Below, piece by piece: positions 29,820 through 63,105 of a stretch of 64,000 nucleotides of DNA. The DNA is from Escherichia phage ECML-4: sequence record JX128257, one strand, 5' to 3'. Position numbers and translations under genes: made by a program. Position 1 is the stretch's first letter, and the number at the start of each line of letters is the position of its first letter. The notes under the pieces are model-generated. The model was given only the letters and a program-made list of their open reading frames with translations. It ran no database searches and was not told the origin of the DNA.

Positions 29820-29996
29820 TTACTTTTTCTTCAGCTCTTCCAGCTTGGCTTCAATTTGGTCCAGAATCTCTTTACCTTTCTGGACGATGGCTTCACCGTC
29901 TTGCGCGTGTTTACGAAAAACCAGAGCGCCAGCAATGAAACCAACAACCACGCCTGGGAGCGCATACACCAACAGATCTTGTAACATGATTTATAT
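29820..29996 (-). CDS. small single-pass membrane protein (58 aa; not in ORF track)
   Basis: hand translation MLQDLLVYALPGVVVGFIAGALVFRKHAQDGEAIVQKGKEILDQIEAKLEELKKK; GAGGA SD 8 nt upstream of ATG; terminator downstream. Confidence 0.4.
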
Positions 29997-30025
29997 CCTC
30001 ACTTTTATAAGCAAGGATATTTATA

Positions 30026-40004: not shown

Positions 40005-40039
40005 GTTCGTTTCCTCTATGGATAAACCTTATGGGATAT

Positions 40040-40489
40040 TTAGGCTTCTCTCTTCGCCAGCCCTGGTTTGAATACCACCATTTCTTCTACGTTATTGGCA
40101 CTCATAGAGGCTATGGAATCGAATCCTTTATTGATAAGTTCCTTCACATTATCGTGAATCTTACCAGGTTCTATCCCCAACTCACGCATTTTGTTTTCCC
40201 AAACAGAAACGTTATTAGAATCTATTACCAGAGTCTTCTTGGCCTTAACACGAAATGCCATGACAACAGGTTCACCAGATTGACGATAGCGAACGGCGTT
40301 TTCCGCGTAGATCTGCGCTTTTTCTGGATCCCCTGTCAGGTAAAATCCAGCACCCATCGTACCAGAGTCAGTCTGGCCAAATTTTTCAAAATCAAAGACG
40401 TCGAATTCAACATTCGACCCATGATATAAAACAATATCCGTAAAATCGGGCAATGTTGATTCACGATAGAATTCTAGGAAGGTTTTCAT
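40040..40489 (-). CDS. ADP-ribosyltransferase-fold protein (PARP-like H-Y-E class candidate)
   Basis: LYHGSN (H-G-S), GAGFYLTGD (G-x-G-x-Y-F/L), IYAEN, later NNVEEMVVF resembling the PARP catalytic-Glu strand; 149 aa. Confidence 0.4.
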   Translation of the reverse strand: MKTFLEFYRESTLPDFTDIVLYHGSNVEFDVFDFEKFGQTDSGTMGAGFYLTGDPEKAQIYAENAVRYRQSGEPVVMAFRVKAKKTLVIDSNNVSVWENKMRELGIEPGKIHDNVKELINKGFDSIASMSANNVEEMVVFKPGLAKREA

Positions 40490-43599: not shown

Positions 43600-43675
43600 T
43601 GGTTGCTTCAACTGGATTCGAACCAGTGACCTCTCCCTTATCAGGGGAACGCTCTACCTACTGAGCTATGAAGCA
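43600..43675 (-). tRNA. tRNA-Ile (anticodon GAT)
   Basis: hand-folded cloverleaf: acceptor TGCTTCA/TGAAGCA, D stem GCTC/GAGC, anticodon stem TTCCC/GGGAG with loop CTGATAA, T arm ACTGG-TTCGAAT-CCAGT, CCA encoded. Confidence 0.8.
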
Positions 43676-43678
43676 ATT

Positions 43679-43767
43679 TGGCGGAAGGTGAAGGATTCGA
43701 ACCTTCGGGGGCTAAAAGCCCCACTCGATTAGCAGTCGAGTCCCTTAAACCTCTCGGGCAACCTTCC
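43679..43767 (-). tRNA. tRNA-Ser (anticodon GCT), type II
   Basis: acceptor GGAAGGT/ACCTTCC, anticodon stem CTCGA/TCGAG with loop CTGCTAA, long variable arm, T arm GAAGG-TTCGAAT-CCTTC, CCA encoded. Confidence 0.8.
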
Positions 43768-44052
43768 GTATACTGCGCCTCGGTCAAGAATTTTCCAAGC
43801 CATGACCTAAATCTGGGTTCTTGACCTGACCGAGCGTAATTTGGACGGGCTTCACACCCGATTGTGCATTTGATCTGCCGTAGCCCAACTCCCCGCGCCG
43901 AAGCGCCGATTGGTTAACTGGCACCAGTGCCTTCTGGTTCGATCTCCTGTAACTTTACAGGCTTTGCGCCCGACCATTTCTGGAAGTTGAGGCATCGTTC
44001 CCGATGTGGAGTCCCCTCATTTTACACAGCTGGCTGCAACGCTTACTGTGTT

Positions 44053-44136
44053 TGGTGTGAGTGGATGGATTCGAACCACCGCGCTGTTACGGGGAGATTT
44101 ACAGTCTCCTGCATTCGACCGCTCTGCCACACTCAC
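44053..44136 (-). tRNA. tRNA-Tyr (anticodon GTA), type II
   Basis: acceptor GTGAGTG/CACTCAC, anticodon stem GGAGA/TCTCC with loop CTGTAAA, 12-nt variable region, T arm GGTGG-TTCGAAT-CCATC, CCA encoded. Confidence 0.75.
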
Positions 44137-44392
44137 ATTTGGTCTACCACCACGTGCTGGGCCACGCTCGAGGACATCGGCCATCCTTCCTCAGCTAATC
44201 CACGCGGCGGTAGATTTAGATCAGAGTGTACGGTGTAGCATTCCGCAGGGGTGCACCTACTGTAGCCCTTTCACTCTGAAATTGTATGAAGTAGGTCTCA
44301 CTCCCCTGGGTATCTGTATCCTGCAGCCTTACATTGGCAGCTATCGCGCGATTCGCACTTCCGAAGGCGCTTCGAGATACTCTACTTCAATT

Positions 44393-44468
44393 TGGCGACG
44401 ATGGCAGGACTTGAACCTGCGACATATGGATTAACAGTCCACCGTTCTACCGACTGAACTACATCGTC
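44393..44468 (-). tRNA. tRNA-Asn (anticodon GTT)
   Basis: acceptor GACGATG/CATCGTC, D stem GTTC/GAAC, anticodon stem GTGGA/TCCAT with loop CTGTTAA, T arm GCAGG-TTCAAGT-CCTGC, CCA encoded. Confidence 0.8.
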
Positions 44469-44469
44469 A

Positions 44470-44670
44470 TTATCCGTGCTTGTTTGCTTCAATTGCCCTT
44501 AATTGAGCATCAGCGTCAGCTTTGGTGTCATGTGTCCCAAGAACCTTCGTCTTGGTGTGGTCAAGGACAACCCACTTGTCGCCTCGCTTTTCAACAAACT
44601 CAACAATCTCTTTGTTGTCGGTAGCGAGGCCATCCCACTCAGCAAGAAACTCACCGAACGTTTTCATCAT
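44470..44670 (-). CDS. small hypothetical protein embedded in tRNA cluster (66 aa)
   Basis: track ORF begins with TTG; more likely start is the ATG-ATG pair at 44670 preceded by GGTGAG. Confidence 0.35.
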   Translation of the reverse strand: MMKTFGEFLAEWDGLATDNKEIVEFVEKRGDKWVVLDHTKTKVLGTHDTKADADAQLRAIEANKHG

Positions 44671-44787
44671 ACTCACCAATTGTTTATTGAACAACTGGTT
44701 TATTTAGGTGCTCCCGAGGCGGTATTTTAATCCCGCGATCCCATCTCGCCTGCCGTAGACCAGAGCATGCTGACAGTCCAACATATT

Positions 44788-44863
44788 TGGTGACCCTGGC
44801 TGGACTTGAACCAGCGACCAATCGATTATGAGTCGACTGCTCTAACCACTGAGCTACGGGGCC
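44788..44863 (-). tRNA. tRNA-Met (anticodon CAT)
   Basis: acceptor GGCCCCG/CAGGGTC (one C-A mismatch), D stem GCTC/GAGC, anticodon stem GTCGA/TCGAT with loop CTCATAA, T arm GCTGG-TTCAAGT-CCAGC, CCA encoded. Confidence 0.7.
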
Positions 44864-47902: not shown

Positions 47903-48265
47903 TTCCTGAGCCTCGTCAAATTAATTAAATGTCCCCACTATTATATTGGGAATATGTTTATTGAATATAACCCCAAGAAAGGCCAATAAAATAATGACAG
48001 CGATTATTAATAGGTAAAAACTACTTTTCTACAACATCAAGAAACTGTATCTTAACGCGGTGCCCTTCGAGTTGTGAGTGTTAACGAACAACGAGAAGCA
48101 GCCTCCATGGCTGCGGAATGGGACTGCCTGTCAAGGCGGTGTTACGAGCGAGGGCGTCAGCCCCCTCGCGAGTATATTCGAATAAATTAACGCGCGAGAG
48201 CGTTTTGATTCCCTTTGGCTAAATATCTTCAACACCATATTCAAACTCAGGTGATGGAGATTATC

Positions 48266-50047
48266 ATGGCCACGCAAACAGTTCCTTCACTCGACGTCAG
48301 AGCCTTTGAGTACATTATCAAACAGCGAATGAAAGCTGATCCCACCTTTAAAGATTATGACTTTGAAGGTTCCGGTCTTAGTGCTATTATTCGTTTGTTG
48401 GCATCTGATGCGAACGCCATAGCCTTTATGCAGAACATGCTTAATGGTGAAGGCCATTTAAAAACAGCAAATCAACGTTCTAATGTTGGTTTGTCTGCTG
48501 CTTTTCTTTCTTACACCCCCGACAACTATCGGGCGGCATACATGTATGCCAACATCAAAGTAACGCCGTATGACGCTAGCACAGCTCCTAATGAGATCAT
48601 TATGGACCGCCGTGTGATGTTCGTTGGTGCAAAAGATGGTAGTTCCTACAACTTTACTGTTGAGAACCCCGTGTCCGCCACGTTGACTGCAGACGGTTAT
48701 TACATGTTCAACAATGTAAAGCTGATTCAGGGTAACTGGTTGTACAAGACTTATGATGTTGAAGGAAGCGCGATTTCGACTTATACGATACCTTCGGAAA
48801 ATGTTGATATCAATCATCTGGTCGTACAGGTACAGGAATCAGAGTCCTCTGATGTTTCAACGACATACCAGAGATACAACAGTCCATTTGACCTGAGCCA
48901 ATATGCCTACCTGTATTTCGTAGAATTAGGCATTGACGGTCTGTATGTGTTTGAATTCGGAGATGGTTATCTTTCGCGTCGAGTAGAAGATGGCAACGTC
49001 ATATTCCTTCAATACTTGGAAACTTCTGGTGCTGATGGAAATGACATCACAAGCCTGTCGTCAGCGTCTTCCATAGGCGGGTTTAACCAAGTTGATGTAG
49101 AATTAGTTTCCGAACGTAGCGCGGGCGGGGACAATCCGGAATCCATTGAAGACACCAAACGGTTGGCTCCTTTAGCTTATCAGGCTGATGGTGCTGCGGT
49201 TACAGAAACCGATTATGGCGTATTGACCGAAAGGTTATTCTCCAACGTCGCCCGTGCTAAATCATATGGCGGTGATACGCTTTCCCCTCCGGATTCTGGT
49301 TACGTTTATATCGCTGTGATACCATCTGTTGGGGAGACTCTTTCAGACGCAGAGAAGGCTGATATCGTTGCCGCGTTGGACAAATACAACGTTGGGTCCA
49401 TCACCCCCAAAGTAGTAGATTCTGAGATCACATATATCCAAGTCGCCACGACTATATTTTGGGATCCGACTTCAACGGTTTATGTTGAAGAACAAATGAA
49501 AGTGGTGGTGGGTAATAGTATCACCAAATGGGGTGAAAACAATCTCGGCGGTTTTGATCAGTTATTCGACAAAGAGATATTGCAGGAAGCAATTACGAAA
49601 ATGGAACGTTCCATTAACTCAAATATCACGTCTGTCGGTTATAAACGTCATTTCAAACCTGATTATGGTGTGTTGGATAGCTTTACTTTCAGTTATGGGA
49701 GAAGCATTAAACCTGGTTCTGTGAAAATAACAGGGTTTAAACCGCTTCCGGCCGAAGTTGATTTCACATATTATATGCGCGATGACAATGGCGATTTGAA
49801 CATGTATAAAGTGAACAACAACGACACCACTAAAGAATTTTTGGTTCAAAAGACTGGTGTTGTGGATTACGCCAACGGCGTCGTAGATCTTCAGCAGATT
49901 ACGGTTTCAAACTATAATACTGAAGGAGTAACGATCGTTGTGCTACCAGATGGCCTGAATCAGAATATACAGGCTTCACAAAACCAGGTATTCAAAATCG
50001 GTGATGTGGTTGTTACGCCAGAGGTGCGCTATGTCCAAAGATCTTAA
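48266..50047 (+). CDS. putative baseplate wedge protein (gp6/J-like)
   Basis: start at ATG 48266 (GGAG SD); about 594 aa; first gene of the plus-strand late module, upstream of fiber and tailspike genes. Confidence 0.4.
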   Translation: MATQTVPSLDVRAFEYIIKQRMKADPTFKDYDFEGSGLSAIIRLLASDANAIAFMQNMLNGEGHLKTANQRSNVGLSAAFLSYTPDNYRAAYMYANIKVTPYDASTAPNEIIMDRRVMFVGAKDGSSYNFTVENPVSATLTADGYYMFNNVKLIQGNWLYKTYDVEGSAISTYTIPSENVDINHLVVQVQESESSDVSTTYQRYNSPFDLSQYAYLYFVELGIDGLYVFEFGDGYLSRRVEDGNVIFLQYLETSGADGNDITSLSSASSIGGFNQVDVELVSERSAGGDNPESIEDTKRLAPLAYQADGAAVTETDYGVLTERLFSNVARAKSYGGDTLSPPDSGYVYIAVIPSVGETLSDAEKADIVAALDKYNVGSITPKVVDSEITYIQVATTIFWDPTSTVYVEEQMKVVVGNSITKWGENNLGGFDQLFDKEILQEAITKMERSINSNITSVGYKRHFKPDYGVLDSFTFSYGRSIKPGSVKITGFKPLPAEVDFTYYMRDDNGDLNMYKVNNNDTTKEFLVQKTGVVDYANGVVDLQQITVSNYNTEGVTIVVLPDGLNQNIQASQNQVFKIGDVVVTPEVRYVQRS

Positions 50048-52078: not shown

Positions 52079-52082
52079 AACT

Positions 52083-52120
52083 AAATACCCCTAGATGACA
52101 TGAATACATTTAGGGGTATT
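52083..52120 (+). promoter_or_regulatory. conserved ATACCCC/GGGGTAT hairpin immediately upstream of a tailspike start codon
   Basis: AATACCCCTA (52083-52092) pairs with TAGGGGTATT (52111-52120), 4 nt before ATG 52125. Confidence 0.5.
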
Positions 52121-52124
52121 ACAA

Positions 52125-55100
52125 ATGGCCAACAAACCAACACAGCCTCTTTTCCCTTTGGGTTTAGAAACTTCGGAGTCTTCGAACATAAAAGGCTTCA
52201 ACAACTCCGGCACCATAGAGCATTCCCCTGGTGCAATATTGACGTTCCCTGAAGATACTGATGTTGCGGGTCTCCCATCTTCTGTGCGTTACAATCCTGA
52301 TAGTGATGAATTCGAAGGTTATTACGAAAATGGCGGGTGGTTGTCTTTGGGCGGCGGTGGAATACGCTGGGAAACGCTCCCATACGCTCCCTCCAGCAAT
52401 CTGTTAGAAGGGCGCGGCTATCTCATTAATAACTCCACTGGGACTTCTACGGTGGTTCTTCCTTCCCCTACGCGCGTTGGTGACTCGGTTACAATTTGTG
52501 ATGCCTATGGTAAATTCGCGACGTATCCATTGACCGTATCTCCAGCGGGAAATAACCTGTACGGCTCCACCGAAGATATGACGATATCCACCGATAACGT
52601 GTCGGCGACTTTCACTTGGTCTGGTGCTGAGCAGGGTTGGGTTGTTACATCTGGTGTTGGCCTCGGTCAAGGTCGTGTGTACAGTCGAGAGATTTTCACT
52701 CAAATTTTAGCATCTGATACAAATGAAGTGACTCTCAACATCCCTCCGACAATTGTGGACGTGTACACTGATGGGAAACGCCTTACAGAATCCAAATATT
52801 CTTTAAATGGAAACGTAATCACTTTCGACCCTTCTTTACCTGCTGGCACTGAATTGCAGGTAATAGAATATACTCCGATTCAGTTAGGTACTGGCGGCGG
52901 GGGTTCGGGCGCTTCTGCAATCACCTGGATTTACAATGGCGGATCCGCTATCGGCGGCGAAACCGAAATAACGCTAGACATCGTTGTAGATGATGTTCCG
53001 GCTATTGATATAAACGGGTCTCGTCAGTACAAAAATCTTGGATTCACGTTCGACCCATTGACGAGTAAAATCACTCTGACGCAAGAACTGGAACCAGAAG
53101 ATGAAGTTGTTGTGGTTATAAATGGGACACCAAACATCTATAACCAGATCGATCGTTCTTTACAGGAAGTTGCTCGCGCCTACAATTTTACAAATGCTCA
53201 AGTTATTTTGAGCAACGATTATACTTCTGTGCTGGATAATAAAGTCGTTATTTATGATACGACATCCCAACGTTCTTGGGGGATTCCATCTGGAATTCCA
53301 GCAGGTTCTACAGTGGTTTCCGTCAATGGGGATCAACTGAAATACAAAAATGGATCAACTGAAACCACTGTTACATTGGTGAGCGTACCAGGTAGTGCAG
53401 AGAAGTTGAAGAACGATCTGGCGTCGAACTCTGGCGCGGGTATGTTGAAAACTTCTAGAGGTGATACCGTAGAAGAAGAATTGACTTTTATTAATCAGAA
53501 TATGGTCGTTCAAATTTCAGATTTCGCGAGCCTTAGAACTTTAGTGCCAGCCACAGCGGGCATCCGAGTCAAATTGAAAGGTTATTATTCTGGTTCTGAA
53601 ATTGGTGGCGGAGAATTCATTTCCGTCGCTGGTGATGCTGTTGATGATGCTGGGATGATTGCTCGAGTGTCAAGCAGCTTCTATTGGAAGAGAATTATCG
53701 ACAAACATATTACTCCTGGTATGTATGGCATCAAAGGGAATCTTCCAGAAGATCCGGCAGTGAAACTGAACGCTATGTTTGCGGCTGCGGCTGCGGCTAA
53801 CGCTTATGTCTTACTGAACGATGTCGATACTCTGGTCTGTAAAAGCCCTGTCGTGATCCCAGCACATTCATTAGTGTACGGCAACAAGCGGACCATATTG
53901 AAACGTGATGCATCGTTGTCATATGCTAATGATTTCTTGACAATTATGAATGATTCATATGTCAAGGGGATCTATGTTGATGGTAGCCGTTTAGATTCTC
54001 AGACTCCGCTAGAAGCAGTTTTGGTGCGCATCGCTGGGAATGTGACTATCCATAAGAGCGAGATCCGAAACAATGCTGGCTATGGCGTTGTTGGTAACGC
54101 AGTCCCTGGCATTCGTATCACCAAGAACATTTTTTCCAACTTCGCCAAAGGTTGTGTGGCTATGTTTGGTGACGGAACGGCGACGAGTGATGATCTGCAA
54201 ATTAATGATAACAGATTCTTTAACCTGGGCGCGGGAACCATTTATGTTGGCGGTTACTCAAACTTCCTTGTCGACAAAAACGTCGGAAGAGGCACTTACG
54301 TGGGTTCTCCAGGAAACCGTCTGTATGTTGTGACCAATACCAACGGGACTATCACCCAAAGCGCTGGGCCAGATTTTGGGGCGCTGAAAACGGGTATGTT
54401 CTTTGTATTGCCTGGTGGTTCTGAACATATGATAACGGCAGTCAACAGCCTTACAAGTGTGACAGTAACCCCAGCACCTCCGTCGAATGCAACGGTTCGT
54501 GCAATTGCTGGGACAGGGGATCTTCTGGGCATCCAATCATGCTCCTACGGCACCATCAGCCGTAACAACCTGACCGATTGTGTGACTTACGGAACTGGTG
54601 GAGGCACGATGGAGGGGAGCACTCTGGGGTGCAATTATGTCACATGGGAAGACAACTTCATCCGCAACACAGGTAAGAACGGAATCAACGTCGGGCAATC
54701 AGGCGCTGGGGTCGCCACGTGTTCAATCCTGAGGAACACTCTGATACAGGTTGGTAACGGCGGTCAGGGTGTTGGCCCAGCGTATCTTCTGCCTTGGTTC
54801 GATACGGTAGGTATTGCTCTGTATCAGGGAAACCCAGGTTATATGGCGAATATGGACGTCAGTGATAACAACGTCTCTACATGGTCTGGCGATCTGAATG
54901 ACGGCGCTGCTTGGTTTGGTATGAGCGGTTGTACGGAAGCCACTGTGACTTGTACAGGCAACAAATCTTCTGGTTATTCCGACGGCTATGTTCGTGGAGA
55001 TATATTAGAAGTCACGTTGACAGGTTATGGTACAGGGGCGGCTGCGACTTCATTCGTTAGTGATGGTGAGTCTATACAGATAACTGTTCAAACAGGTACT

Positions 55101-55298
55101 TCACCAACAGCTTCTCCTTATTTTTCAGTGCGGAAGGCGATCCGCACCCGCCATCAACCGATGATAACGGCGCAGATCGTCACCACAACTGGGAACATGT
55201 CTCATTGTTGGGGTATGCAATCTAGTACAGCAGGAAATTGGATGGTGGGTCAGAATACAACTCCTTCAGGGGTCACGACGTATTACGCAAAAGGGTAA
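52125..55298 (+). CDS. tailspike protein (1057 aa) with beta-helix region
   Basis: internal module IDRSLQEVARAYNFTNAQVILS...VVIYDTTSQRSWGIP homologous to the other three tailspikes; C-terminal Gly/Asn/Thr-rich repeats typical of right-handed beta-helix. Confidence 0.75.
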   Translation: MANKPTQPLFPLGLETSESSNIKGFNNSGTIEHSPGAILTFPEDTDVAGLPSSVRYNPDSDEFEGYYENGGWLSLGGGGIRWETLPYAPSSNLLEGRGYLINNSTGTSTVVLPSPTRVGDSVTICDAYGKFATYPLTVSPAGNNLYGSTEDMTISTDNVSATFTWSGAEQGWVVTSGVGLGQGRVYSREIFTQILASDTNEVTLNIPPTIVDVYTDGKRLTESKYSLNGNVITFDPSLPAGTELQVIEYTPIQLGTGGGGSGASAITWIYNGGSAIGGETEITLDIVVDDVPAIDINGSRQYKNLGFTFDPLTSKITLTQELEPEDEVVVVINGTPNIYNQIDRSLQEVARAYNFTNAQVILSNDYTSVLDNKVVIYDTTSQRSWGIPSGIPAGSTVVSVNGDQLKYKNGSTETTVTLVSVPGSAEKLKNDLASNSGAGMLKTSRGDTVEEELTFINQNMVVQISDFASLRTLVPATAGIRVKLKGYYSGSEIGGGEFISVAGDAVDDAGMIARVSSSFYWKRIIDKHITPGMYGIKGNLPEDPAVKLNAMFAAAAAANAYVLLNDVDTLVCKSPVVIPAHSLVYGNKRTILKRDASLSYANDFLTIMNDSYVKGIYVDGSRLDSQTPLEAVLVRIAGNVTIHKSEIRNNAGYGVVGNAVPGIRITKNIFSNFAKGCVAMFGDGTATSDDLQINDNRFFNLGAGTIYVGGYSNFLVDKNVGRGTYVGSPGNRLYVVTNTNGTITQSAGPDFGALKTGMFFVLPGGSEHMITAVNSLTSVTVTPAPPSNATVRAIAGTGDLLGIQSCSYGTISRNNLTDCVTYGTGGGTMEGSTLGCNYVTWEDNFIRNTGKNGINVGQSGAGVATCSILRNTLIQVGNGGQGVGPAYLLPWFDTVGIALYQGNPGYMANMDVSDNNVSTWSGDLNDGAAWFGMSGCTEATVTCTGNKSSGYSDGYVRGDILEVTLTGYGTGAAATSFVSDGESIQITVQTGTSPTASPYFSVRKAIRTRHQPMITAQIVTTTGNMSHCWGMQSSTAGNWMVGQNTTPSGVTTYYAKG

Positions 55299-55310
55299 TA
55301 TTGAATGCCT

Positions 55311-55345
55311 AAATACCCCATATTGGTCATCCTTTATGGGGTATT
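55311..55345 (+). promoter_or_regulatory. conserved ATACCCC/GGGGTAT hairpin upstream of a tailspike start codon
   Basis: AATACCCCATA pairs with TATGGGGTATT, ending 4 nt before ATG 55349; near-identical copy at 57847-57881. Confidence 0.5.
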
Positions 55346-55348
55346 ATC

Positions 55349-57232
55349 ATGATTTCTCAATTCAATCAACCACGCGGCTCCACTTCCATAGAAGTTAACA
55401 AACAATCTATCGCTCGAAATTTCGGTGTCAAAGAAGACGAAGTCATTTATTTCACTGCTGGTATTGATCTCAGTGGATTTAAAGTAATTTATGATGAGTC
55501 TACCCAACGGGCTTATTCTCTCCCTTTCGGTATTGTTTCAGGGACAACTGCAATTAGTCTGGATGAAAGAGCTATCCTCACTCATTCCGCTGGCTCTGTT
55601 GACCTTGGGGAATTAGCAGTAAGCCGCGAAGAATATGTGACTTTACCTGGTTCTTTTAATTTCGGCCATACCATTAATGTGAAAAATGAACTTCTTGTTC
55701 ACGATGATAAAAAATATCGATGGGATGGCACATTACCTAAAGTTGTTCCTGTTGGATCAACTCCTACAACAACTGGGGGAATTGGGGTTGGTGCATGGTT
55801 GAGTGTTGGTGATGCATCGCTACGTGGTGAATTATTTTCAGAATACATCTTATACAAAACACCTCAGGCATTTGGTGCTATTGGTGATGGAGTTGCTGAT
55901 GACACTTTATCACTGCAAGATGCAATGGATTACTGTCAGGTTCACAACGAGAAACTTGTTATCCCATCAGGACGCTATCGAATCACCAAGCCACTGCTAT
56001 ATCGCAACCAGGGTTTTTATAACTATGAGATTGAAGGGCAGGGAGGTGCTGCTGTAATCATCATGGATTCTCTGGAAAAAACTGGAATTACTGCTCCTGA
56101 TGCCTTTGGCGATGATTTTAACGTTAACGCAGCGATGGTAGTTCTGAATGACACTAACCAGAGTAAGTATTGCCGCATTAGTGGATTGCGTTTCGAATCA
56201 CCAGTTGGTGCTGAATATGCTATTTATGTTGGTCAGGCAGAAAATACGTATATCCATGACTGCTTCTGGACTGGTTTCACCTTTGGGTGGTATGACCTTG
56301 GATCATGGGTTACACGCGTAGAACGCTGTATTGCCAGGGATATTGTAGATACTGGGTTCTTTAAGAAAAATGGCACCAGTACCTACATAGCTGAGTGTTA
56401 TGCAGACAGGATGATGCGAGGGTATTACCTCGGGGGTGGGTATTCGGCTATCATAAATTGTGCTTGCGATTTAACCACTCGCTGGGGGTTCTATCTATAT
56501 GGTGGTAGGACTGGTTCTGATTTAGCAACATTCTCTATTAAAGGTTGTGGTTCAGAGCAGTCTGGAACTGATTCTGTATTTTATGTTGACGGGCTAGTTG
56601 CGCTGTCTATAGAGGACCACAACGCAGGTAATGACCCAACTGTTCAACCAGCACCTGCTGCGTTGCTTAGCATGGCTTCGAATACATCATATTCACAAGT
56701 GGTGCTGAAAAATATTAGGACAGTAAATGTGGATACATTAATTTTGGATTCTGCTGACCATAATTATTTTGATTTAACAAATGTCACATGCCGCAGCGAG
56801 ATGTCGAAAGAATTTTATCTCGGTACGAATTCAAGAGTTTTAAAAAGGTCATATGATGGTGAAAGATTCATTACTAGCAACGACCAAGTTGGCATTGGCT
56901 TTGCGGAGTCTGATATTGTTGATGGATGGACAGATCTCACTTTGTCTGGACTAAGAAATGGACAATTTATAATTAGGAGGACTGTAAGCATACCCAGAAC
57001 TTCAGGGGATGCTGGGGCGGTAACTATCACGATGCCATTAAATATGGATACGAATTATACCGTAGCTGCCACTCTGGAGGGTGAATTTAGTCAACTGCAA
57101 TCCATTTGCCCTGTGTTCAGTGTTACAGATAAAACATCATCTAGTTTTTCTTTGTGTGCATCGTCTGCAAAGAATAATACAACATGGTCAGCTATAGATG
57201 TTGAGGTGATTATATATGGGCTGAAATCGTAA
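55349..57232 (+). CDS. tailspike protein (627 aa), pectate-lyase-like beta-helix
   Basis: N-terminal anchor shared with the 60707 gene (KVIYDESTQRAYSLP...HSAGSVDLGELA...LPGSF); FGAIGDGVADDTLSLQDA resembles the Pectate_lyase_3 signature. Confidence 0.8.
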   Translation: MISQFNQPRGSTSIEVNKQSIARNFGVKEDEVIYFTAGIDLSGFKVIYDESTQRAYSLPFGIVSGTTAISLDERAILTHSAGSVDLGELAVSREEYVTLPGSFNFGHTINVKNELLVHDDKKYRWDGTLPKVVPVGSTPTTTGGIGVGAWLSVGDASLRGELFSEYILYKTPQAFGAIGDGVADDTLSLQDAMDYCQVHNEKLVIPSGRYRITKPLLYRNQGFYNYEIEGQGGAAVIIMDSLEKTGITAPDAFGDDFNVNAAMVVLNDTNQSKYCRISGLRFESPVGAEYAIYVGQAENTYIHDCFWTGFTFGWYDLGSWVTRVERCIARDIVDTGFFKKNGTSTYIAECYADRMMRGYYLGGGYSAIINCACDLTTRWGFYLYGGRTGSDLATFSIKGCGSEQSGTDSVFYVDGLVALSIEDHNAGNDPTVQPAPAALLSMASNTSYSQVVLKNIRTVNVDTLILDSADHNYFDLTNVTCRSEMSKEFYLGTNSRVLKRSYDGERFITSNDQVGIGFAESDIVDGWTDLTLSGLRNGQFIIRRTVSIPRTSGDAGAVTITMPLNMDTNYTVAATLEGEFSQLQSICPVFSVTDKTSSSFSLCASSAKNNTTWSAIDVEVIIYGLKS

Positions 57233-57269
57233 TTATTGTATTAAATAAATAACTTATCTTTTATTAAAA

Positions 57270-57296
57270 AACCCCGCTTCGGTGGGGTTAGTTTTT
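57270..57296 (+). terminator. rho-independent terminator
   Basis: AACCCCGCTTCGGTGGGGTT hairpin followed by GTTTTT. Confidence 0.6.
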
Positions 57297-57846
57297 AGAA
57301 GTTGTTGATGGTAATCGGCGATGATTGCTCATTTTGTTTTGGGTAATTCTTCGATCTTCAGTCGTTAAACGCCATCATTGCTGCTTCCCATCCCAGCGCC
57401 ACACACACACACACTATGCATCCGGCATTTAAAGATGCGGAAAGGTAATCAATCTGGCCTTCCTCCCAATCGCTAATTGTGTGGTCTTTCCTCTTGCTTC
57501 TGGTGTTTCTTTGTCCGGCGCTGGGAATTATATGGTAATTTCGGGAAACACGTTGATGGCTAATAACCCATCTGCGCCTGAAAATATAACTTTGTATCAG
57601 GTCACAGGTGCGCAGAGTTGGGTGGCCCATTATGAAACTATCAGATGTGTTCGAAATGATTTCAAATCTGCGCTGTTGGCGATTAATGCAACAGGGACAG
57701 CACAATCTGGTTTGAGTACTACCAATAAATTCTGGTTCGGGGATAACGCGACGATCAATACCACGGTTGTTTGTACTTATCCTGCTGGCAACAAAGCCAA
57801 CACCGATATCACTCAGACAGTTTCAGTTTAAATTGAATTGAGCCTA

Positions 57847-57881
57847 AATACCCCATATTGGCAAATCCTTTATGGGGTATT
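57847..57881 (+). promoter_or_regulatory. conserved ATACCCC/GGGGTAT hairpin upstream of a tailspike start codon
   Basis: AATACCCCATA ... TATGGGGTATT, about 35/40 identical to the 55311 copy; track ORF starts at an ATG inside the 3' arm. Confidence 0.5.
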
Positions 57882-57886
57882 TTCAA

Positions 57887-60652
57887 ATGACCAGAAATGT
57901 AGAAGAATTATTCGGCGGCGTAGTCACAGCTCCCCACCAGATTCCTTTCACTTATAAATCAAGTGTCGGTGGAGAAACTTTCTTTTCTCTACCTTTCTAT
58001 CCTGTCACTGGTGTTGTCACAATCAACGGTGGTATGCAAGTTCCGTTAGAGAACTTCGAGATAGACGGGAATACGTTGAATCTCGGGCGCGCATTGTCCA
58101 AAGGCGATGTTGTGTATTGCTTATTCGATAAAATTCTTTCACCAGAAGACACTGCCAAAGGCATCCGCATATACAAATTTCAAGCCGTGGGTGGAGAAAC
58201 CGAATTCACGCCTGACTTTACTTCTTATGGTGTACAGTCTCTTTATATCGGTGGCGAATACAAAACTCCTGATATAGAATATTCATACAACAGTACGACT
58301 GGGAAAGTGTCTTTGCAAACTGCATTGACTGCAGGCGTTTGGGTAGTCGCTGAAATCTCTGTTAAACAACCGAATATCAGTCCGGCGTTTGACCGCAGTA
58401 TTCAAGAAATTGCCCGTTCTGCTAATGTGAAAGACTCTGAAGTCATCGTTAGTACGGACACCATATCTTTGTTGGATGGGAAGAAAGTTGTTTATGACAT
58501 AGCGGCACAAACCAGTTATGGTTTACCAACCATTCCTGATGGTTCTGTCATTTCTACGATCTCAGACGGGAAATTGAATTACAACCCAGGTGATGTGCAG
58601 GTTGATTTGTTGCCTTTAGAAGATTCATTTATTAATGTGATAAACACTCTGGGGCGCAATGATGGTGCCAAGTATATCGGAGAATGCCATTCTGTTGCTG
58701 ATCTCAGGAATACTGAACCCACTATGGATGGACAACGCATTATTCTTAAGCAACACACTGCGGGTACTCTTCTTGGTGGAGGGGTATTCCGTGCGTTAAT
58801 TGATGGTACAGGAAAGACTGATGATAACGGTACTGTGATCAAAACTGTTGGCGGCGCAGCCTGGTTACGTGTTAATGCTGATAGAGTTAACCCATTCATG
58901 TTTGGTGCTTTGGGTGGTTCTAATGATGATACTATTCCAGTACAATCTTGTGTGGACAGTGGTAAGGCCACACAATTAACTGGTATACATTACGTTAGCA
59001 ATATCCAGTTAAAATATAATACGTCGTCTATTTATGGGTCTGGATTACATTACTCCAGGTTGCATCAGTTGCCTTCTGCTACTGGGAATTGTATTACCAT
59101 AAAAGATACATGCTCCCTTATTGTATTAGACTCCTTTGGGGTATATGGCACAGGTGCACAACAAGGCACATCATTTACTGCGGGTACAACAGGTATCTAT
59201 ATAGAAACTCCTTCAGGTCTCTCAGCCGATTATCCGTTCCACACTACCGCAGACCCAAGACGCGACTTGTGTATTTCTAAGGTCCATATAGCAGGTTTTG
59301 ATGAATATGGGTTAAATATTGATAGTGGTAACTTTAGTGTTACTACAGATTCTCTTTTAGTCAACCACATCAATCAGGTGGGCGTCCGTTGTGCTACTAC
59401 TGATTGGACTTGGACAAATATCCAGGTTAATACCTGCGGTAAACAATGTCTGGTTCTTGATGGTTGTGGTAATGGTCGTATTATTGGTGGTAAATTCATT
59501 TGGGCTAACTGGCAACCTTATGGTACAGTAGGACAGTTCCCAGGCATTACTATTAATAATAGCCAGAATATGGTTATTAATGGTATTGAGGTACAAGATT
59601 GTGGCGGGAATGGCATTGAGATTAGCGATTCATATTCAATTTCCATGAACGGATTGAACACCAATCGTAACGGCATCAACGCTAACAACACTTTCTACAA
59701 CATCGTATTTAACAAAAGTGATGCAGTTATCAACGGATTCGTAGGACTCAATTATGCCGCGAATAGTGGTTCAGGTGCTAACTCTAGTGCGGGCAATTTT
59801 CAGTTCCTGTCTAATGATTGCAGCGTCACCATTAATGGTGTGGTTGAGACTGGTTATATGGGCATTAACTTTATTGGTGATAACAATATTATCAACCCCA
59901 CAAATTCCGACCTGAGCATTAACGGATTGGTTAATTATTCCAAGACTGGTTTGCAAACCATGAACGAGACCCCTACATTTGATGGTGTTAGCACTACACC
60001 TGTTTATGTAAGTGTCCCATCTTCTGTAGGGCAAGTAAATGGTCTGAGACTATCACAAGCCAACAAAGATAAATTACTGTACTCAAGAACAGCAGGTCCA
60101 GAAGGTATTACCATGGCTGCTGTTGTAGTACCTACCATATCTGGAGCTGAAGTATTTAACTTCATGGCCATTGGTTCAGGGTTTAGTGATACATCCAACA
60201 GTCTTCATCTTCAATTAGTTATAGACGCTTCCGGAAAACAAACAATTGCTTTGCTATTGGGGGGCGATGGTACAACCCAAATTTTATCTGGGGATTTACC
60301 TAACGACCTTAAACTACAAAGTGGTGTGCCATATCATATAGCTATTGGTGCTAAACCTGGATATTTCTGGTGGAGTATTCTTAATATTCAGACGGGTAAG
60401 AGAATCAGACGGTCATTCCGAGGCGCTTATTTAGCTGTACCATTTAATTCTATATTCGGATTAACTTCTTCATTAACATTCTTCTCGGATAGCAATGCTG
60501 GTGGGGATGCCTGTTCTGGTGTAGGTGCTAAAGTGTATGTTGGTATGTTCTCTTCTGAGAATGATTATGTAGCTTCACGGTACTACAACCTGATTAATCC
60601 TGTAGACCCTAATAAGTTAATTAGTTACCGTATATTGGATTCTTCTATTTAA
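57887..60652 (+). CDS. tailspike protein (about 921 aa) with beta-helix region
   Basis: start set to ATG 57887 by analogy with the other tailspikes; module FDRSIQEIARSANVKDSEVIVS...VVYDIAAQTSYGLP homologous to the 52125 gene; Gly/Asn-rich repeats. Confidence 0.75.
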   Translation: MTRNVEELFGGVVTAPHQIPFTYKSSVGGETFFSLPFYPVTGVVTINGGMQVPLENFEIDGNTLNLGRALSKGDVVYCLFDKILSPEDTAKGIRIYKFQAVGGETEFTPDFTSYGVQSLYIGGEYKTPDIEYSYNSTTGKVSLQTALTAGVWVVAEISVKQPNISPAFDRSIQEIARSANVKDSEVIVSTDTISLLDGKKVVYDIAAQTSYGLPTIPDGSVISTISDGKLNYNPGDVQVDLLPLEDSFINVINTLGRNDGAKYIGECHSVADLRNTEPTMDGQRIILKQHTAGTLLGGGVFRALIDGTGKTDDNGTVIKTVGGAAWLRVNADRVNPFMFGALGGSNDDTIPVQSCVDSGKATQLTGIHYVSNIQLKYNTSSIYGSGLHYSRLHQLPSATGNCITIKDTCSLIVLDSFGVYGTGAQQGTSFTAGTTGIYIETPSGLSADYPFHTTADPRRDLCISKVHIAGFDEYGLNIDSGNFSVTTDSLLVNHINQVGVRCATTDWTWTNIQVNTCGKQCLVLDGCGNGRIIGGKFIWANWQPYGTVGQFPGITINNSQNMVINGIEVQDCGGNGIEISDSYSISMNGLNTNRNGINANNTFYNIVFNKSDAVINGFVGLNYAANSGSGANSSAGNFQFLSNDCSVTINGVVETGYMGINFIGDNNIINPTNSDLSINGLVNYSKTGLQTMNETPTFDGVSTTPVYVSVPSSVGQVNGLRLSQANKDKLLYSRTAGPEGITMAAVVVPTISGAEVFNFMAIGSGFSDTSNSLHLQLVIDASGKQTIALLLGGDGTTQILSGDLPNDLKLQSGVPYHIAIGAKPGYFWWSILNIQTGKRIRRSFRGAYLAVPFNSIFGLTSSLTFFSDSNAGGDACSGVGAKVYVGMFSSENDYVASRYYNLINPVDPNKLISYRILDSSI

Positions 60653-60653
60653 A

Positions 60654-60677
60654 AATATACCCCTCTTCGGAGGGTAT
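60654..60677 (+). promoter_or_regulatory. ATACCC hairpin with TTCG tetraloop upstream of fourth tailspike
   Basis: ATACCCTC-TTCG-GAGGGTAT followed by T-run; AGGAGA SD then ATG 60707. Confidence 0.5.
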
Positions 60678-60706
60678 TTACTAGAGAAAAACAGGAGATT
60701 CTTATT

Positions 60707-62941
60707 ATGAATCCGCAATTTGCTCAACCAAAAGGTTCTACTTCAAAAGAATCGAACAAAGACAGTATTGCTCGTAAATTTGGGTGTAAAAAGTCGGAAG
60801 TCGTTTATGCGAAATCAGGACAGTCCTTGTCTGGATATAAGGTTATTTATGACAAGGAAACACAGAGAGCGTATTCCTTGCCTGTAGATATTCCAGCAGG
60901 AACCACGGCTATTAGCCTTAGCGCCAGTGCTCTGCTTGTACACTCTGGGGGTTCTGTAGACCTGGGCGAACTAGCTTCCCAACGCAATGAATATAATGTA
61001 TTACCTGGTTCTTTTACTACTGGTGCAATAGTATCCACAAAGAATGATGTACTTACCCACAATGGTATCCAGTATCGTTGGAATGGTTCATTACCTAAAG
61101 TTGTACCTCAGAACTCTTTACCATCCAGTGATGATAATTGGATTGGCTTGGGTGCTTCTTATCTGAAGGAACAGCTTAACAGTACCAGTGGTGCATCCAT
61201 GGTAGTACTGGCTAATGGCAAAACCATTGAAGAAGAATTTGCCGAAGAAGCTGCATGGCAGAACCAAGAGAATATGGTGAGAACCGTTATTCCTAATGTT
61301 TATCACCATATCCGTGGCGTTCAGCGTCACTCTGGTAAAAACTTAGCATGGTCTGCTCCAGACGTTGCTATTGATAAACTTAACCCTACGGATACCGTCT
61401 TCTACCGTATGCCCCAGATTGTTAAAACTGGTGATGGTACTCTGATGATTTTCTGTAATGAGTTGCATGGTAACAATACAGATATTGGTGCTACTCCAGA
61501 TCAGCAATGTAATATCGTTATGAAATACTCCATTGATAATGGGTGGTCTTGGTCGGCTAAGGTAGTGGTAGCTAACTTTGGGGCTACGTATCAGAACGGT
61601 GAGATTGCTGCTGTGTATAACCCAGTAGATGGTCGGGTATACTGTTACTTTACTTCCTGCAAAGGCCAGTTGGGTTGGGGATACTCACAGCCAGGCAATG
61701 ACCCTAATACATCATCCCAGATATATGTTACCTACTGTGATGCGGAAGCTCCTACTATATGGCGTACACCAGCTAACATTACTGCTACCCTTAAGCCAGC
61801 AACGGCAGATTTTATCTGGACTTCACCAACTAAACCAGTTGTTTTACCGGATGGTAAGATGGCAATGATTGTGTCTACCGTCACTGGTTCACGGGTTGAT
61901 TCTTTCCTTACCATCATGAAGTATGACATTAAGTACAGCATGGACTACGTACTTAGTTCCGAAGAATCTGGTGGGGAAGTCGGACTGAACCTTTTGCCGG
62001 ATGGTCGTATGGTGATGAACTCTCGTGCTTACCACACCACAGACCTTAAAGGGCTTCAGAAATTCTATATCAGTGATCATCAGTTTAAGAACTGGCAGCA
62101 CTTATCTGATTTAGTTACATCGGATAGTAAGGGTGACCTGGTTCCTATTTTTGATGGGGTTAATGGTGTTCTTACTTGGGCGTTTACTTGTGCTAATGGT
62201 GTAGGTGATAATTCTATTGGTCGTACTAACTACCGAGTATGGATTAGTCGTGACCTAGTTACTTGGGGGTTAGCTCCTACTGGGGATATCAACACAAGTG
62301 ATTCTGTTGGGTACATCGCATCAATGCCTGGTGGTGATGATGGTTATGTAATCTCTACATCTGAATCAGGTGGTTTTGGTGGTATTTGGTTTACTCAATG
62401 GAATGCTAAGTATATCCAGAACAGAAACTACAACCGCTATCACAAAGAGTTGCGAGAATTAGAGTCAGTAGATGAAACAGCAATGCTCGCATCCGGCGCT
62501 ATTCCTAACTACTCTTTTTACGTAAACAAAGACTCCAACCTAATTAACTTCAACCGCAACGGTACTCCAGTTAAGATTCAGCAATTGGGGGTTAGTCAGA
62601 ATGCTGTTGATAAGTACACTACAACTCAGACCCTAGCATCTATTCCTGTAGATGGTGTTGATATTGTATTAGTCACTGGTTCCGGTATTACTCTTACCCT
62701 TAGTGGGTTTAGCGGTGGATATATGGGCCAGCGTGTGACAGTTATCTCTGATTCATCTGGTGGTGGGGTAGTGCTTAAACGTGCTGATACAACATTGCCT
62801 ACTGTAACGGACAGATTCCACTTTAATGTGGCAGGAGCCTTTACTGCTTTGAGGGTAGACTATGCAACTAAGATGATGGTTACTTTAGTTAAGACTCCAT
62901 CTGGTTGGTTCACGGAAAGTATTGCTAACGTAACAATCTAA
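60707..62941 (+). CDS. tailspike protein (744 aa) with Asp-box (BNR) beta-propeller-like domain
   Basis: N-terminal anchor KVIYDKETQRAYSLP...HSGGSVDLGELA...LPGSF; Asp-box-like SIDNGWSWS and SRDLVTWG in the C-terminal half. Confidence 0.75.
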   Translation: MNPQFAQPKGSTSKESNKDSIARKFGCKKSEVVYAKSGQSLSGYKVIYDKETQRAYSLPVDIPAGTTAISLSASALLVHSGGSVDLGELASQRNEYNVLPGSFTTGAIVSTKNDVLTHNGIQYRWNGSLPKVVPQNSLPSSDDNWIGLGASYLKEQLNSTSGASMVVLANGKTIEEEFAEEAAWQNQENMVRTVIPNVYHHIRGVQRHSGKNLAWSAPDVAIDKLNPTDTVFYRMPQIVKTGDGTLMIFCNELHGNNTDIGATPDQQCNIVMKYSIDNGWSWSAKVVVANFGATYQNGEIAAVYNPVDGRVYCYFTSCKGQLGWGYSQPGNDPNTSSQIYVTYCDAEAPTIWRTPANITATLKPATADFIWTSPTKPVVLPDGKMAMIVSTVTGSRVDSFLTIMKYDIKYSMDYVLSSEESGGEVGLNLLPDGRMVMNSRAYHTTDLKGLQKFYISDHQFKNWQHLSDLVTSDSKGDLVPIFDGVNGVLTWAFTCANGVGDNSIGRTNYRVWISRDLVTWGLAPTGDINTSDSVGYIASMPGGDDGYVISTSESGGFGGIWFTQWNAKYIQNRNYNRYHKELRELESVDETAMLASGAIPNYSFYVNKDSNLINFNRNGTPVKIQQLGVSQNAVDKYTTTQTLASIPVDGVDIVLVTGSGITLTLSGFSGGYMGQRVTVISDSSGGGVVLKRADTTLPTVTDRFHFNVAGAFTALRVDYATKMMVTLVKTPSGWFTESIANVTI

Positions 62942-62948
62942 AATACAA

Positions 62949-62974
62949 GCCCCCAATAAGGGGGCTTTCTTTTG
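62949..62974 (+). terminator. rho-independent terminator
   Basis: AGCCCCCAATAAGGGGGCT hairpin followed by TTCTTTT. Confidence 0.6.
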
Positions 62975-63105
62975 CTATGTCTCGTTAACCTGACAGGAAC
63001 TGGAAGTTCAAAACTATCAGGTGGAGGAACTGGGTTTTTATTTCTATCTGTTTGTTGGCTGTATACTAAATATCTCTATAAAATGGCACTAGATGGAGCA
63101 TCAAA

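Follow-up and report, generated by a model that had tools for sequence, protein, structure and literature searches.

The 64,000-nucleotide stretch of Escherichia phage ECML-4 analysed here (sequence record JX128257, hereafter the window) carries on its plus strand a cluster of four tailspike protein (TSP) genes, and the present work concerns strong RNA hairpins that lie immediately before three of these genes and whose 5' arm overlaps a late-promoter-like box. The 9.5 kb around the tailspike hairpins matched 255 phage records, the best being Escherichia phage KEP4, Salmonella phage AR2819, Sa157lw and Vi01; the window is therefore, as judged from these similarities, that of a Kuttervirus, a Vi01/CBA120-like member of the Ackermannviridae. 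In order along the cluster are found the TSP4-type gene (52125-55298, 1057 amino acids), the TSP3 gene (55349-57232, 627 amino acids), the TSP2 gene (57887-60652) and the TSP1 gene (60707-62941), with a baseplate wedge subunit gene and two conserved virion-region genes as 5' neighbours. The arrangement described below probably represents a translational gate of the kind known from T4 gene e, in which a late promoter is embedded in a hairpin sequestering the Shine-Dalgarno (SD) sequence.

The pattern ATACCC-N(4-30)-GGGTAT occurred five times in the window for 0.15 occurrences expected. Hairpin 1, before TSP4, spans 52084..52120 (5' arm 52084-52097, loop 52098-52106, 3' arm 52107-52120) with a folding free energy (dG) of -19.1 kcal/mol, corresponding to a z-score of -5.3 when the RNA dG is compared with dinucleotide shuffles, and is kept in all of the fetched loci L001-L017. 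Hairpin 2, before TSP3, spans 55312..55345 (arms 55312-55322 and 55335-55345; dG -19.6 kcal/mol, z -4.1) and hairpin 3, before TSP2, spans 57846..57882 (arms 57846-57857 and 57871-57882; dG -18.8 kcal/mol, z -4.6). The positions given to these three hairpins in a preliminary description of the window were thus correct to within 1-3 nt, as was its remark that two copies are nearly identical, hairpins 2 and 3 being the same over about 40 nt, loop excepted. Hairpins 1-3 have long loops of 9-15 nt that contain inner pairs. In each case the 3' arm ends close to the start codon (5, 4 and 6 nt before the ATG at 52125, 55349 and 57887 respectively) and contains the GGGG run (52113-52116, 55338-55341 and 57874-57877) that is the sole SD-like run before TSP4, TSP3 and TSP2, in agreement with what had been proposed. 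The ATG at 57887 is the true start of TSP2, since the annotation of phage Marshall, a close relative with a complete genome (loci L057-L060), uses the equivalent ATG; the start at 57872 in the list of open reading frames (ORFs) falls within the arm of hairpin 3. Marshall's annotation also marks the GGGG as the ribosome-binding site.

A fifth copy (CCTAAATACCCCATACAGCAAGTGTGGGGTATCCATG) was found on the minus strand, with its box at 40523-40516, its helix at 40518-40492 (dG -17.2, z -4.3) and its ATG at 40489. It serves a conserved gene of 149 amino acids that is not a tailspike (40040-40489, minus strand; phrog_4700, annotated as of unknown function), and in 12 orthologues of this copy the arms are constant and the loop varies. 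Together with the sister elements presented below, it shows that the element is not tailspike-specific as had been supposed. All four strong copies start with CTAAATACCCC, and at hairpins 1-3 and 5 the GGGG lies 5-9 nt ahead of the ATG with no other purine run nearby. Rfam covariance models gave no match at 52.1, 55.3, 57.8, 60.6 or 40.5 kb, even with E-values up to 1; the Rfam matches in the window were tRNAs only, at 43.6-44.9 kb, and correspond to five tRNA genes clustered at 43603-44863 on the minus strand, between two boxed leaders, with scores of 56-77 bits.

The preliminary description placed a hairpin of this kind before all four tailspike genes, which holds for TSP4, TSP3 and TSP2 and fails for TSP1. 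The fourth site (60657..60677, plus strand, 3' of TSP2) is a different element, a terminator-like CCCUC-UUCG-GAGGG stem lying 30 nt from the TSP1 ATG without a CTAAATA box, and its fold is not significant in a 65-nt context (z 0.07). A terminator scan, set to find short G+C-rich stems with loops of 3-8 nt and no fewer than 5 T among the next 8 nt, flagged 60661-60674 at this site, with the tail TATTT; in relatives this position is occupied by CCCCCTCCTTCGGGAGGGTTTATT or by unrelated G+C stems. TSP1 itself has an ordinary AGGAG SD (60693-60697, ATG 60707, plus strand) in a leader, 60693..60709, conserved across genera. The fourth site is consequently an ordinary terminator-like stem and not a member of the hairpin family.

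The alignment of orthologous junctions recovered hairpins in all of the Ackermannviridae loci fetched, down to relatives in which the neighbouring protein is only 51-65% identical. Across these orthologues the box, the CCCC/GGGG core and the TAT are invariant, and the loops, distal stems and upstream flanks vary. In about 100 copies the sole broken core pair is an A.C mismatch in hairpin 2 of one relative, IMGVR_UViG_2974546594_000001 (L009 14516, L036 3036), where T has become C in the 3' arm (GGGGCAT). Column covariation on the hairpin 1 alignment was discarded because MAFFT had displaced the 3' arm of the distant rows by a single column and because the core showed no variation.

The pairing between the two arms was evaluated over 26 TAAATA sites upstream of annotated Marshall starts, by comparing the pairing of the 13-nt tract from -8 to +5 with the -18 to -1 region of its own gene and with that of permuted partners. 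Own-gene pairing had a mean of -8.5 kcal/mol vs -4.8 +/- 0.46 kcal/mol for permuted partners, a value attained in 0 of 20,000 permutations. The result persisted when the CCCC/GGGG family was collapsed to one member (-7.0 vs -4.2; 0/20,000) and when this family was removed altogether (-6.6 vs -4.1; 0/20,000). Across genera, the leader of the RuvC-like resolvase gene displays double changes from A-U to U-A and from A-U to G-C as well as a matched G...C insertion, and the endolysin leader varies by G.U wobble only, 1 cell in 117 being broken. These data indicate that the pairing has been selected for and did not arise by accident.

These last leaders belong to a group of sister elements, in which the same layout is found with other arms. 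In Marshall, matched arms precede the endolysin gene (AAAUACCUCUGCA / UGCGGAGGUAUUU; L059 2470-2508, Marshall 102470-102508), the RuvC-like Holliday-junction resolvase gene (AUACCCAUAAC / GUUAUGGGUAU; L059 13589-13634, Marshall 113589-113634), Marshall_68 (TATAAATACCCCC / GGGGGTAT) and Marshall_12 (AUAUCCU / AGGAUAU), and further matched arms were found at the gp14-like, baseplate hub and baseplate wedge genes. The sister element at L058 12835-12865 (Marshall 62835-62865) precedes a gene for a 242-amino-acid hypothetical protein. The window holds an equivalent of the Marshall_12 leader at 29985..30025 on the minus strand, with the exact T4 octamer TATAAATA as its box (30025-30018), the AUAUCCU / AGGAUAU helix at 30020-29993 (dG -13.2) and an ORF of 55 amino acids starting at the ATG at 29987. 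Weaker sister elements are located at 44668..44708 on the minus strand (box 44708-44701, helix 44699-44675, ATG 44670 of a 66-amino-acid ORF; dG -10.8) and, on the plus strand, at 48218..48268 before the baseplate wedge gene (box 48218-48225, helix 48225-48261, ATG 48266; dG -11.6). At 43342-43306, on the minus strand, the tract following a TAAATA box pairs with the SD of the next ORF with a dG of -8.6 kcal/mol.

The strandedness of these elements could also be assessed. G.U wobble pairs, present in hairpins 1 and 5 as well as in the leader of the endolysin gene, indicate a sense-strand RNA. That the inverted repeat, which does overlap a promoter-like box, acts instead at the DNA level, either as the operator of a regulatory protein or as a cruciform or hairpin promoter recognised single-stranded, is hardly credible: on the opposite strand the G.U pairs become A.C mismatches, the position of the 3' arm follows the AUG rather than the box, and the spacing between arms ranges from 8 to 21 nt among copies, a variability that speaks against the operator of a dimeric protein.

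Some sister elements raise the question of termination. The preliminary description had listed terminators of the preceding cistron among the possible roles, and the hairpins could be mainly terminators, attenuators or 3'-end stabilisers of that cistron, their overlap with the ribosome-binding site being incidental, or back-to-back terminator-promoter units. The stem cores are G+C-rich, the tail of hairpin 3 is U-rich (UUUUC/TTTC), U-runs follow the Marshall_68, endolysin and RuvC-like elements, Marshall's annotators labelled two of the endolysin, resolvase and 242-amino-acid-protein elements as terminators in the GenBank record, a UAUUU on the 3' side arises automatically in any helix that takes in the AAATA of the box, and the fourth site does belong to this class. 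On the other hand, the scan flagged 60661-60674, 57270-57289 and 62947-62967 and none of hairpins 1, 2, 3 and 5, and the tails of hairpins 1, 2 and 5 (UAC, UAUC and CC) lack a U-tract. The real terminators nearby have a different appearance, with AACCCCGCTTCGGTGGGGTT followed by TTTTT, at 57270-57289 (after TSP3) and at 62947-62967, the latter being a strong bidirectional one (AAGCCCCCAATAAGGGGGCTT) 3' of TSP1 and followed by the hairpin-less box of the next gene. A terminator has no need for a 3' arm that is the only SD of the next gene at a fixed 5-9 nt from its AUG, nor for pairing with the cognate promoter tract. Termination as the main role is thus unlikely and applies, of the five sites, to the fourth rather than to hairpins 1 and 2 or to the fifth copy, although hairpin 3 and the U-tailed sister elements may have a secondary attenuating role.

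The identity of the box then becomes central. Hairpins 1-3 and 5 reproduce the motif CTAAATAcCcc exactly in their 5' arm, which is intergenic and upstream of a gene, the original source of the motif reportedly being Adriaenssens et al. 2012. In the window the boxes of these hairpins are aCTAAATA at 52080..52087 for TSP4 and cCTAAATA at 55308..55315 for TSP3 and at 57843..57850 for TSP2, all on the plus strand; that is, CTAAATA begins at 52081, 55309, 57844 and, for the minus-strand copy, 40522, and TATAAATA begins at 30025 on the minus strand, these assignments being made on sequence evidence only. The motif is quoted as one of two 'unique regulatory motifs' of the ViI-like phage group (PMC7283392). 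The T4 late promoter is an 8-bp box, TATAAATA, at -13 to -6, and the late box of Aeromonas phage Aeh1 has a/gC at -13/-12, giving (A/G)CTAAATA (PMC2988020). CTAAATA is equal to this Aeh1 variant. Homologues of gp55, gp33 and gp45 have been reported for ViI-like phages, including CBA120, ViI and AG3 (PMC3184105, PMC3121705), and a gp55 late sigma factor, a gp33 co-activator and a sliding clamp are annotated in Marshall, such genes being located outside the present window.

The distribution of the box was consistent with this identity. CTAAATA is not over-represented in the Marshall genome, with 21 copies, and 17 of these are found on the coding strand no more than 78 nt ahead of an annotated start, where about 1 would be expected (P about 5e-19). 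The genes concerned are mostly virion genes, among them those for the baseplate wedge, tailspikes, a gp14-like protein, sheath, scaffold and tube cap. Two boxes of the window served as hairpin-less controls, CTAAATATCCC at 40037..40044 on the minus strand (152-amino-acid gene, ATG 40004) and CTAAATATCTC at 63065..63072 on the plus strand (gene after TSP1, ATG 63106). The L034 and L035 orthologues of the 152-amino-acid gene have CTAAATACCCCATA, likewise without a 3' arm, and the TSP1-type genes of relatives have CTAAATACAAG together with AGGAG. Since the box is also found without a 3' arm (40044-40037, 63065-63072, L034, L035), it constitutes a unit by itself, to which a hairpin has been added at some genes. 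These observations point to CTAAATA as a gp55-type late promoter, the probable Ackermannviridae version of the T4 TATAAATA box. Another overlap between a terminator and a promoter box was observed at Marshall 99050-99069 (L058 49050-49069), where an annotated terminator (AATCCCCCTAAATACAGGGGGATT) has CTAAATA in its loop, directly ahead of a gene annotated as 'starvation-inducible transcriptional regulator'.

With the T4 geometry, in which the box occupies -13 to -6, the predicted +1 falls on the sixth base after TAAATA, just past the CCCC, at 52093, 55321, 57856 and, for the fifth copy, 40510. The helices begin at position 3-5 of TAAATA. The box, which would be read by the phage gp55/gp33/gp45 late transcription system, and the C-tract following it would accordingly encode the 5' strand of an RNA helix whose 3' strand bears the only SD of the gene (GGGGU), 5-9 nt before the AUG. 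An RNA initiated upstream would have both strands, with its ribosome site locked in a helix of 11-14 bp, and an RNA from the own promoter, starting about 6 nt after TAAATA, would lack the 5' strand and leave the ribosome site open, so that each gated gene would be translated essentially only from its own late-promoter transcript. Read-through into the hairpins is plausible, as no terminator is present between the upstream gene and hairpins 1, 2 and 5.

The predicted gating was estimated from the modelled energy needed to make positions -13 to +3 single-stranded, with the read-through RNA starting 90 nt upstream. This opening cost was 19.6, 18.7, 16.6 and 19.1 kcal/mol for hairpins 1, 2, 3 and 5 respectively in the read-through RNA, and 6.8, 6.3, 5.4 and 4.9 kcal/mol in the RNA from the predicted +1. 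For TSP1, used as a control, it was essentially unchanged (6.2 vs 5.3 kcal/mol). Among the sister elements of the window, the cost would drop from 16.9 to 3.7 kcal/mol at 30025-29985, from 9.7 to 3.7 kcal/mol at 44708-44668 (both minus strand) and from 15.9 to 9.2 kcal/mol at 48218-48268 (plus strand). What the sequences show directly is the hairpins and their conservation, their overlap with the box and the SD, the cognate-specific pairing, the compensatory changes of the sister elements and a layout identical to that of T4 gene e; promoter activity, the +1 position, the read-through RNA and translational gating are all inferred. The structure-gated translation put forward in the preliminary description is thus upheld as regards the sequestration of the SD in the stem, while its form is more specific than had been suggested and already known, the 5' arm being itself a putative late-promoter box.

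A hairpin with its SD in the stem could also operate in another manner, as a constitutive attenuator or as a thermo- or factor-dependent gate, with the whole hairpin present in all transcripts and opened by breathing, a helicase, S1 or a phage factor, CTAAATA being no promoter at all. Experimental evidence for CTAAATA initiating transcription was not found in the literature searched, and the C-rich tract following the box is unlike T4, both of which would fit such a mechanism. It is nevertheless improbable, because the placement of CTAAATA 12-78 nt upstream of starts, extremely non-random and at many sites hairpin-less, points to a promoter, as does its match to the Aeh1 late-promoter variant. 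Moreover, the start of the helix is always within the box or directly behind it, a feature shared with T4 gene e, and for abundant virion proteins whose only ribosome site is locked by 17-20 kcal/mol the cost would be high if no release were built in. Since the 5' arm is a T4-type late-promoter box, the gate is probably set by the start of the transcript and not by melting or by a trans-acting factor.

Several points weigh against the proposed late-promoter gate. The cores of orthologous tailspike hairpins never vary, and direct covariation comes only from the sister elements and from the comparison of paralogues. The transcripts from the predicted +1 still hold 5-7 kcal/mol of structure over the ribosome site. 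The segment downstream of the box is CCCC here vs A+T-rich in T4, and the start point or promoter strength could differ. The searchable literature yields no transcription start, promoter activity or translation measurement, and no usable RNA-seq data, for any Ackermannviridae phage. To these must be added the terminator labels of the Marshall record and the U-rich tails of some family members already mentioned. Finally, the genes upstream of the three tailspike hairpins are late too, and the T4 rationale, silencing of early read-through, is therefore not directly transferable, the benefit to the cluster having to be inferred. Taking these points into account, we still consider the element to be, probably, a late promoter of the T4 gene e type contained in a hairpin that sequesters the SD.

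Regarding this benefit, each tailspike would be uncoupled from the preceding cistron, and TSP3 and TSP2 would be given the same promoter and leader whatever receptor-binding module lies upstream; insulation of cistrons together with identical expression signals for TSP3 and TSP2 is a likely, hypothetical advantage. An extension of this idea can be offered more tentatively, as a possibility that we hold to be doubtful: the lower-case Cs of CTAAATAcCcc would be partly an anti-SD strand, the hairpins would form a genome-wide cistron insulator of the Ackermannviridae at about 10 of about 26 late promoters, and at the tailspikes they would act as a standard expression socket, with translation of each spike from its own, identical promoter and leader only. 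If true, the stoichiometry of the branched four-spike complex would survive swaps of the upstream receptor-binding cassette or of its terminator.

Traces of such a swap are present near TSP3. The canonical intrinsic terminator after this gene (57270..57289) appears to have arrived with a foreign cassette, and the following segment of about 200 bp (57296-57495) is 83-90% identical to siphoviruses of about 46 kb (ECO95 1-6-1, S.Kent 1-2-1, gmqsjt-1, Vi II-E1-like). It is succeeded on the plus strand by a remnant consisting of the last 355 bp of a Vi01-type TSP3 gene (57489..57843), 98.9% identical to the 3' end of Vi01 TSP3, corresponding to the C-terminus of phrog_7992 and stopping just before hairpin 3. 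Since 57489-57843 is the 3' end of the Vi01 TSP3 gene, the right-hand exchange junction is placed about 355 bp upstream of hairpin 3. Local BLAST of 57233-57843 against the fetched loci returned the terminator fragment only, the origin being given by a search of a phage database. By these matches, 57233-57843 is the fossil of a horizontally acquired receptor-binding cassette with the old 3' end left in place. In a Kuttervirus, IMGVR_UViG_2974516482_000001 (L005 6545-9737, L042 2061-5253), TSP4 runs directly to a TSP2-type junction hairpin without TSP3, an arrangement which a deletion between direct repeats of about 45 nt (tattagttcagaCTAAATACCCCATATTGG...) would produce.

It was also suggested earlier that the repeats could be homology boxes for tailspike cassette exchange; in a broader form of this reading they would mediate exchange or deletion by recombination, with hairpin potential being secondary. 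Similarity between phages does start at or a few nt before CTAAATA, the upstream receptor-binding ends being different, hairpins 2 and 3 repeat each other directly over about 40-50 nt, and over more in relatives sharing tattagttcaga upstream, and the TSP3-less arrangement of L005/L042 is what a deletion between repeats would give. As the purpose of the element this is nonetheless very unlikely and the suggestion has found little support: the exchange visible in the window crossed over in the old TSP3 gene at the junction located above, the same element is found before non-tailspike genes, and the adjacent conserved N-terminal coding regions already give hundreds of bases of homology. The published recombination sites are the TD1 motif, the N-termini and flanking genes (PMC8432352), and a homology box needs no complementary arms, wobble-preserving changes or fixed relation to the AUG.

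If correct, the late-promoter gate provides a mechanistic reading for a motif listed for more than ten years in this phage family without a stated function, and it gives precise predictions of where late transcription starts. Intergenic sequences, promoters and hairpins go unmentioned in the main comparative paper on the tailspike clusters of Ackermannviridae (PMC8432352). For host-range engineering of Kuttervirus, the 45 nt before each tailspike, comprising promoter, gate and ribosome site, would have to stay intact, and moving a tailspike, 5' arm included, to a position downstream of a different promoter would be expected to silence it. As side observations touching on translational control in these phages, Marshall_78 (L058 20422-20886) is annotated as 'translation repressor', and in a related phage, according to the SW16-7 paper, an endoribonuclease regulates translation; the gated genes have GGGG and not GGAG, and would lack the RegB cleavage motif if this 'translation repressor' is RegB-like.

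It was finally of interest to compare the element with known systems. With Rho-independent terminators it shares a G+C-rich stem, an A-rich 5' side and a U-rich 3' side, and differs from them in that hairpins 1, 2 and 5 are without a U-tract, hairpins 1-3 are long-looped and the 3' arm doubles as SD. In the literature read, CTAAATAcCcc appears solely as a motif, and neither a complementary 3' arm nor an RNA helix nor the SD is mentioned (PMC7283392, PMC8432352). The gate was also searched for elsewhere with an exact-pattern scan of IMG/VR, whose contigs were mostly inseparable from chance, only the enrichment of a nearby ATG and of the full T4 octamer being informative. An ATG lies within 10 nt in 42 of the 89 matches, many of which may be chance, and the module was found with the exact T4 octamer in unrelated contigs, e.g. 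TATAAATACCCCTAGGAAACTAGGGGTATTTTTTTATG. This suggests, at the level of sequence patterns, that other T4-like phages have the CCCC/GGGG version of the gate as well. The layout TATAAATACCCC-loop-GGGGTAT-T(n)-ATG was observed in the non-Ackermannviridae contigs L066, L067, L090, L110, L117, L121, L123 and L132, which are mostly metagenomic.

In T4, long transcripts of genes e, soc, 49 and I-TevI have their SD and/or AUG sequestered, related phages keep a late promoter in the region encoding the 5' strand, and mobE of Aeh1 is another documented late-promoter/hairpin gate (PMC3014915). The closest likeness is with the lysozyme leader of T4 gene e, where late promoters lie in the hairpin sequestering the ribosome-binding site (McPheeters et al. 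1986, reviewed in PMC3014915). Folded for comparison, this leader (TATAAATACCTTC-TATAAATACTTA-GGAGGTATTATG) gave a dG of -19.4 kcal/mol, and a stability of about -19 kcal/mol is thus common to both. In both, the 5' arm has the AAATA of the box at its base, the SD is paired with a pyrimidine tract following the box, and the ATG is closely preceded by GGTAT (TATAAATACCTTC...GGAGGTATTATG in T4, CTAAATACCCC...GGGGTATTATCATG in the window); the Marshall endolysin gene is moreover preceded by a sister element. The two differ in the box (CTAAATA here vs TATAAATA), in the SD (GGGGU here vs GGAGG), in the number of boxes (one here vs two in T4) and in the read-through to be silenced, which would be that of the tailspike cluster and not early RNA.

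As for T4 soc, gene 49 and I-TevI and for Aeh1 mobE, they have in common with the present element an SD or AUG in a helix whose 5' strand late transcripts lack, and the RuvC-like resolvase of Marshall, the functional counterpart of gene 49, carries a sister element; the proteins and the arm sequences are unrelated. Taken together, these comparisons suggest that numerous genes of a distant T4-superfamily branch are under a gate of the T4 lysozyme type, with the endolysin and Holliday-junction resolvase genes mirroring T4 e and 49. The switch itself is already known, and it is its sites here that are new and not tailspike-specific: unlike the T4 and Aeh1 gates, the predicted one would be present at no fewer than 8-11 genes per genome, large virion proteins included.

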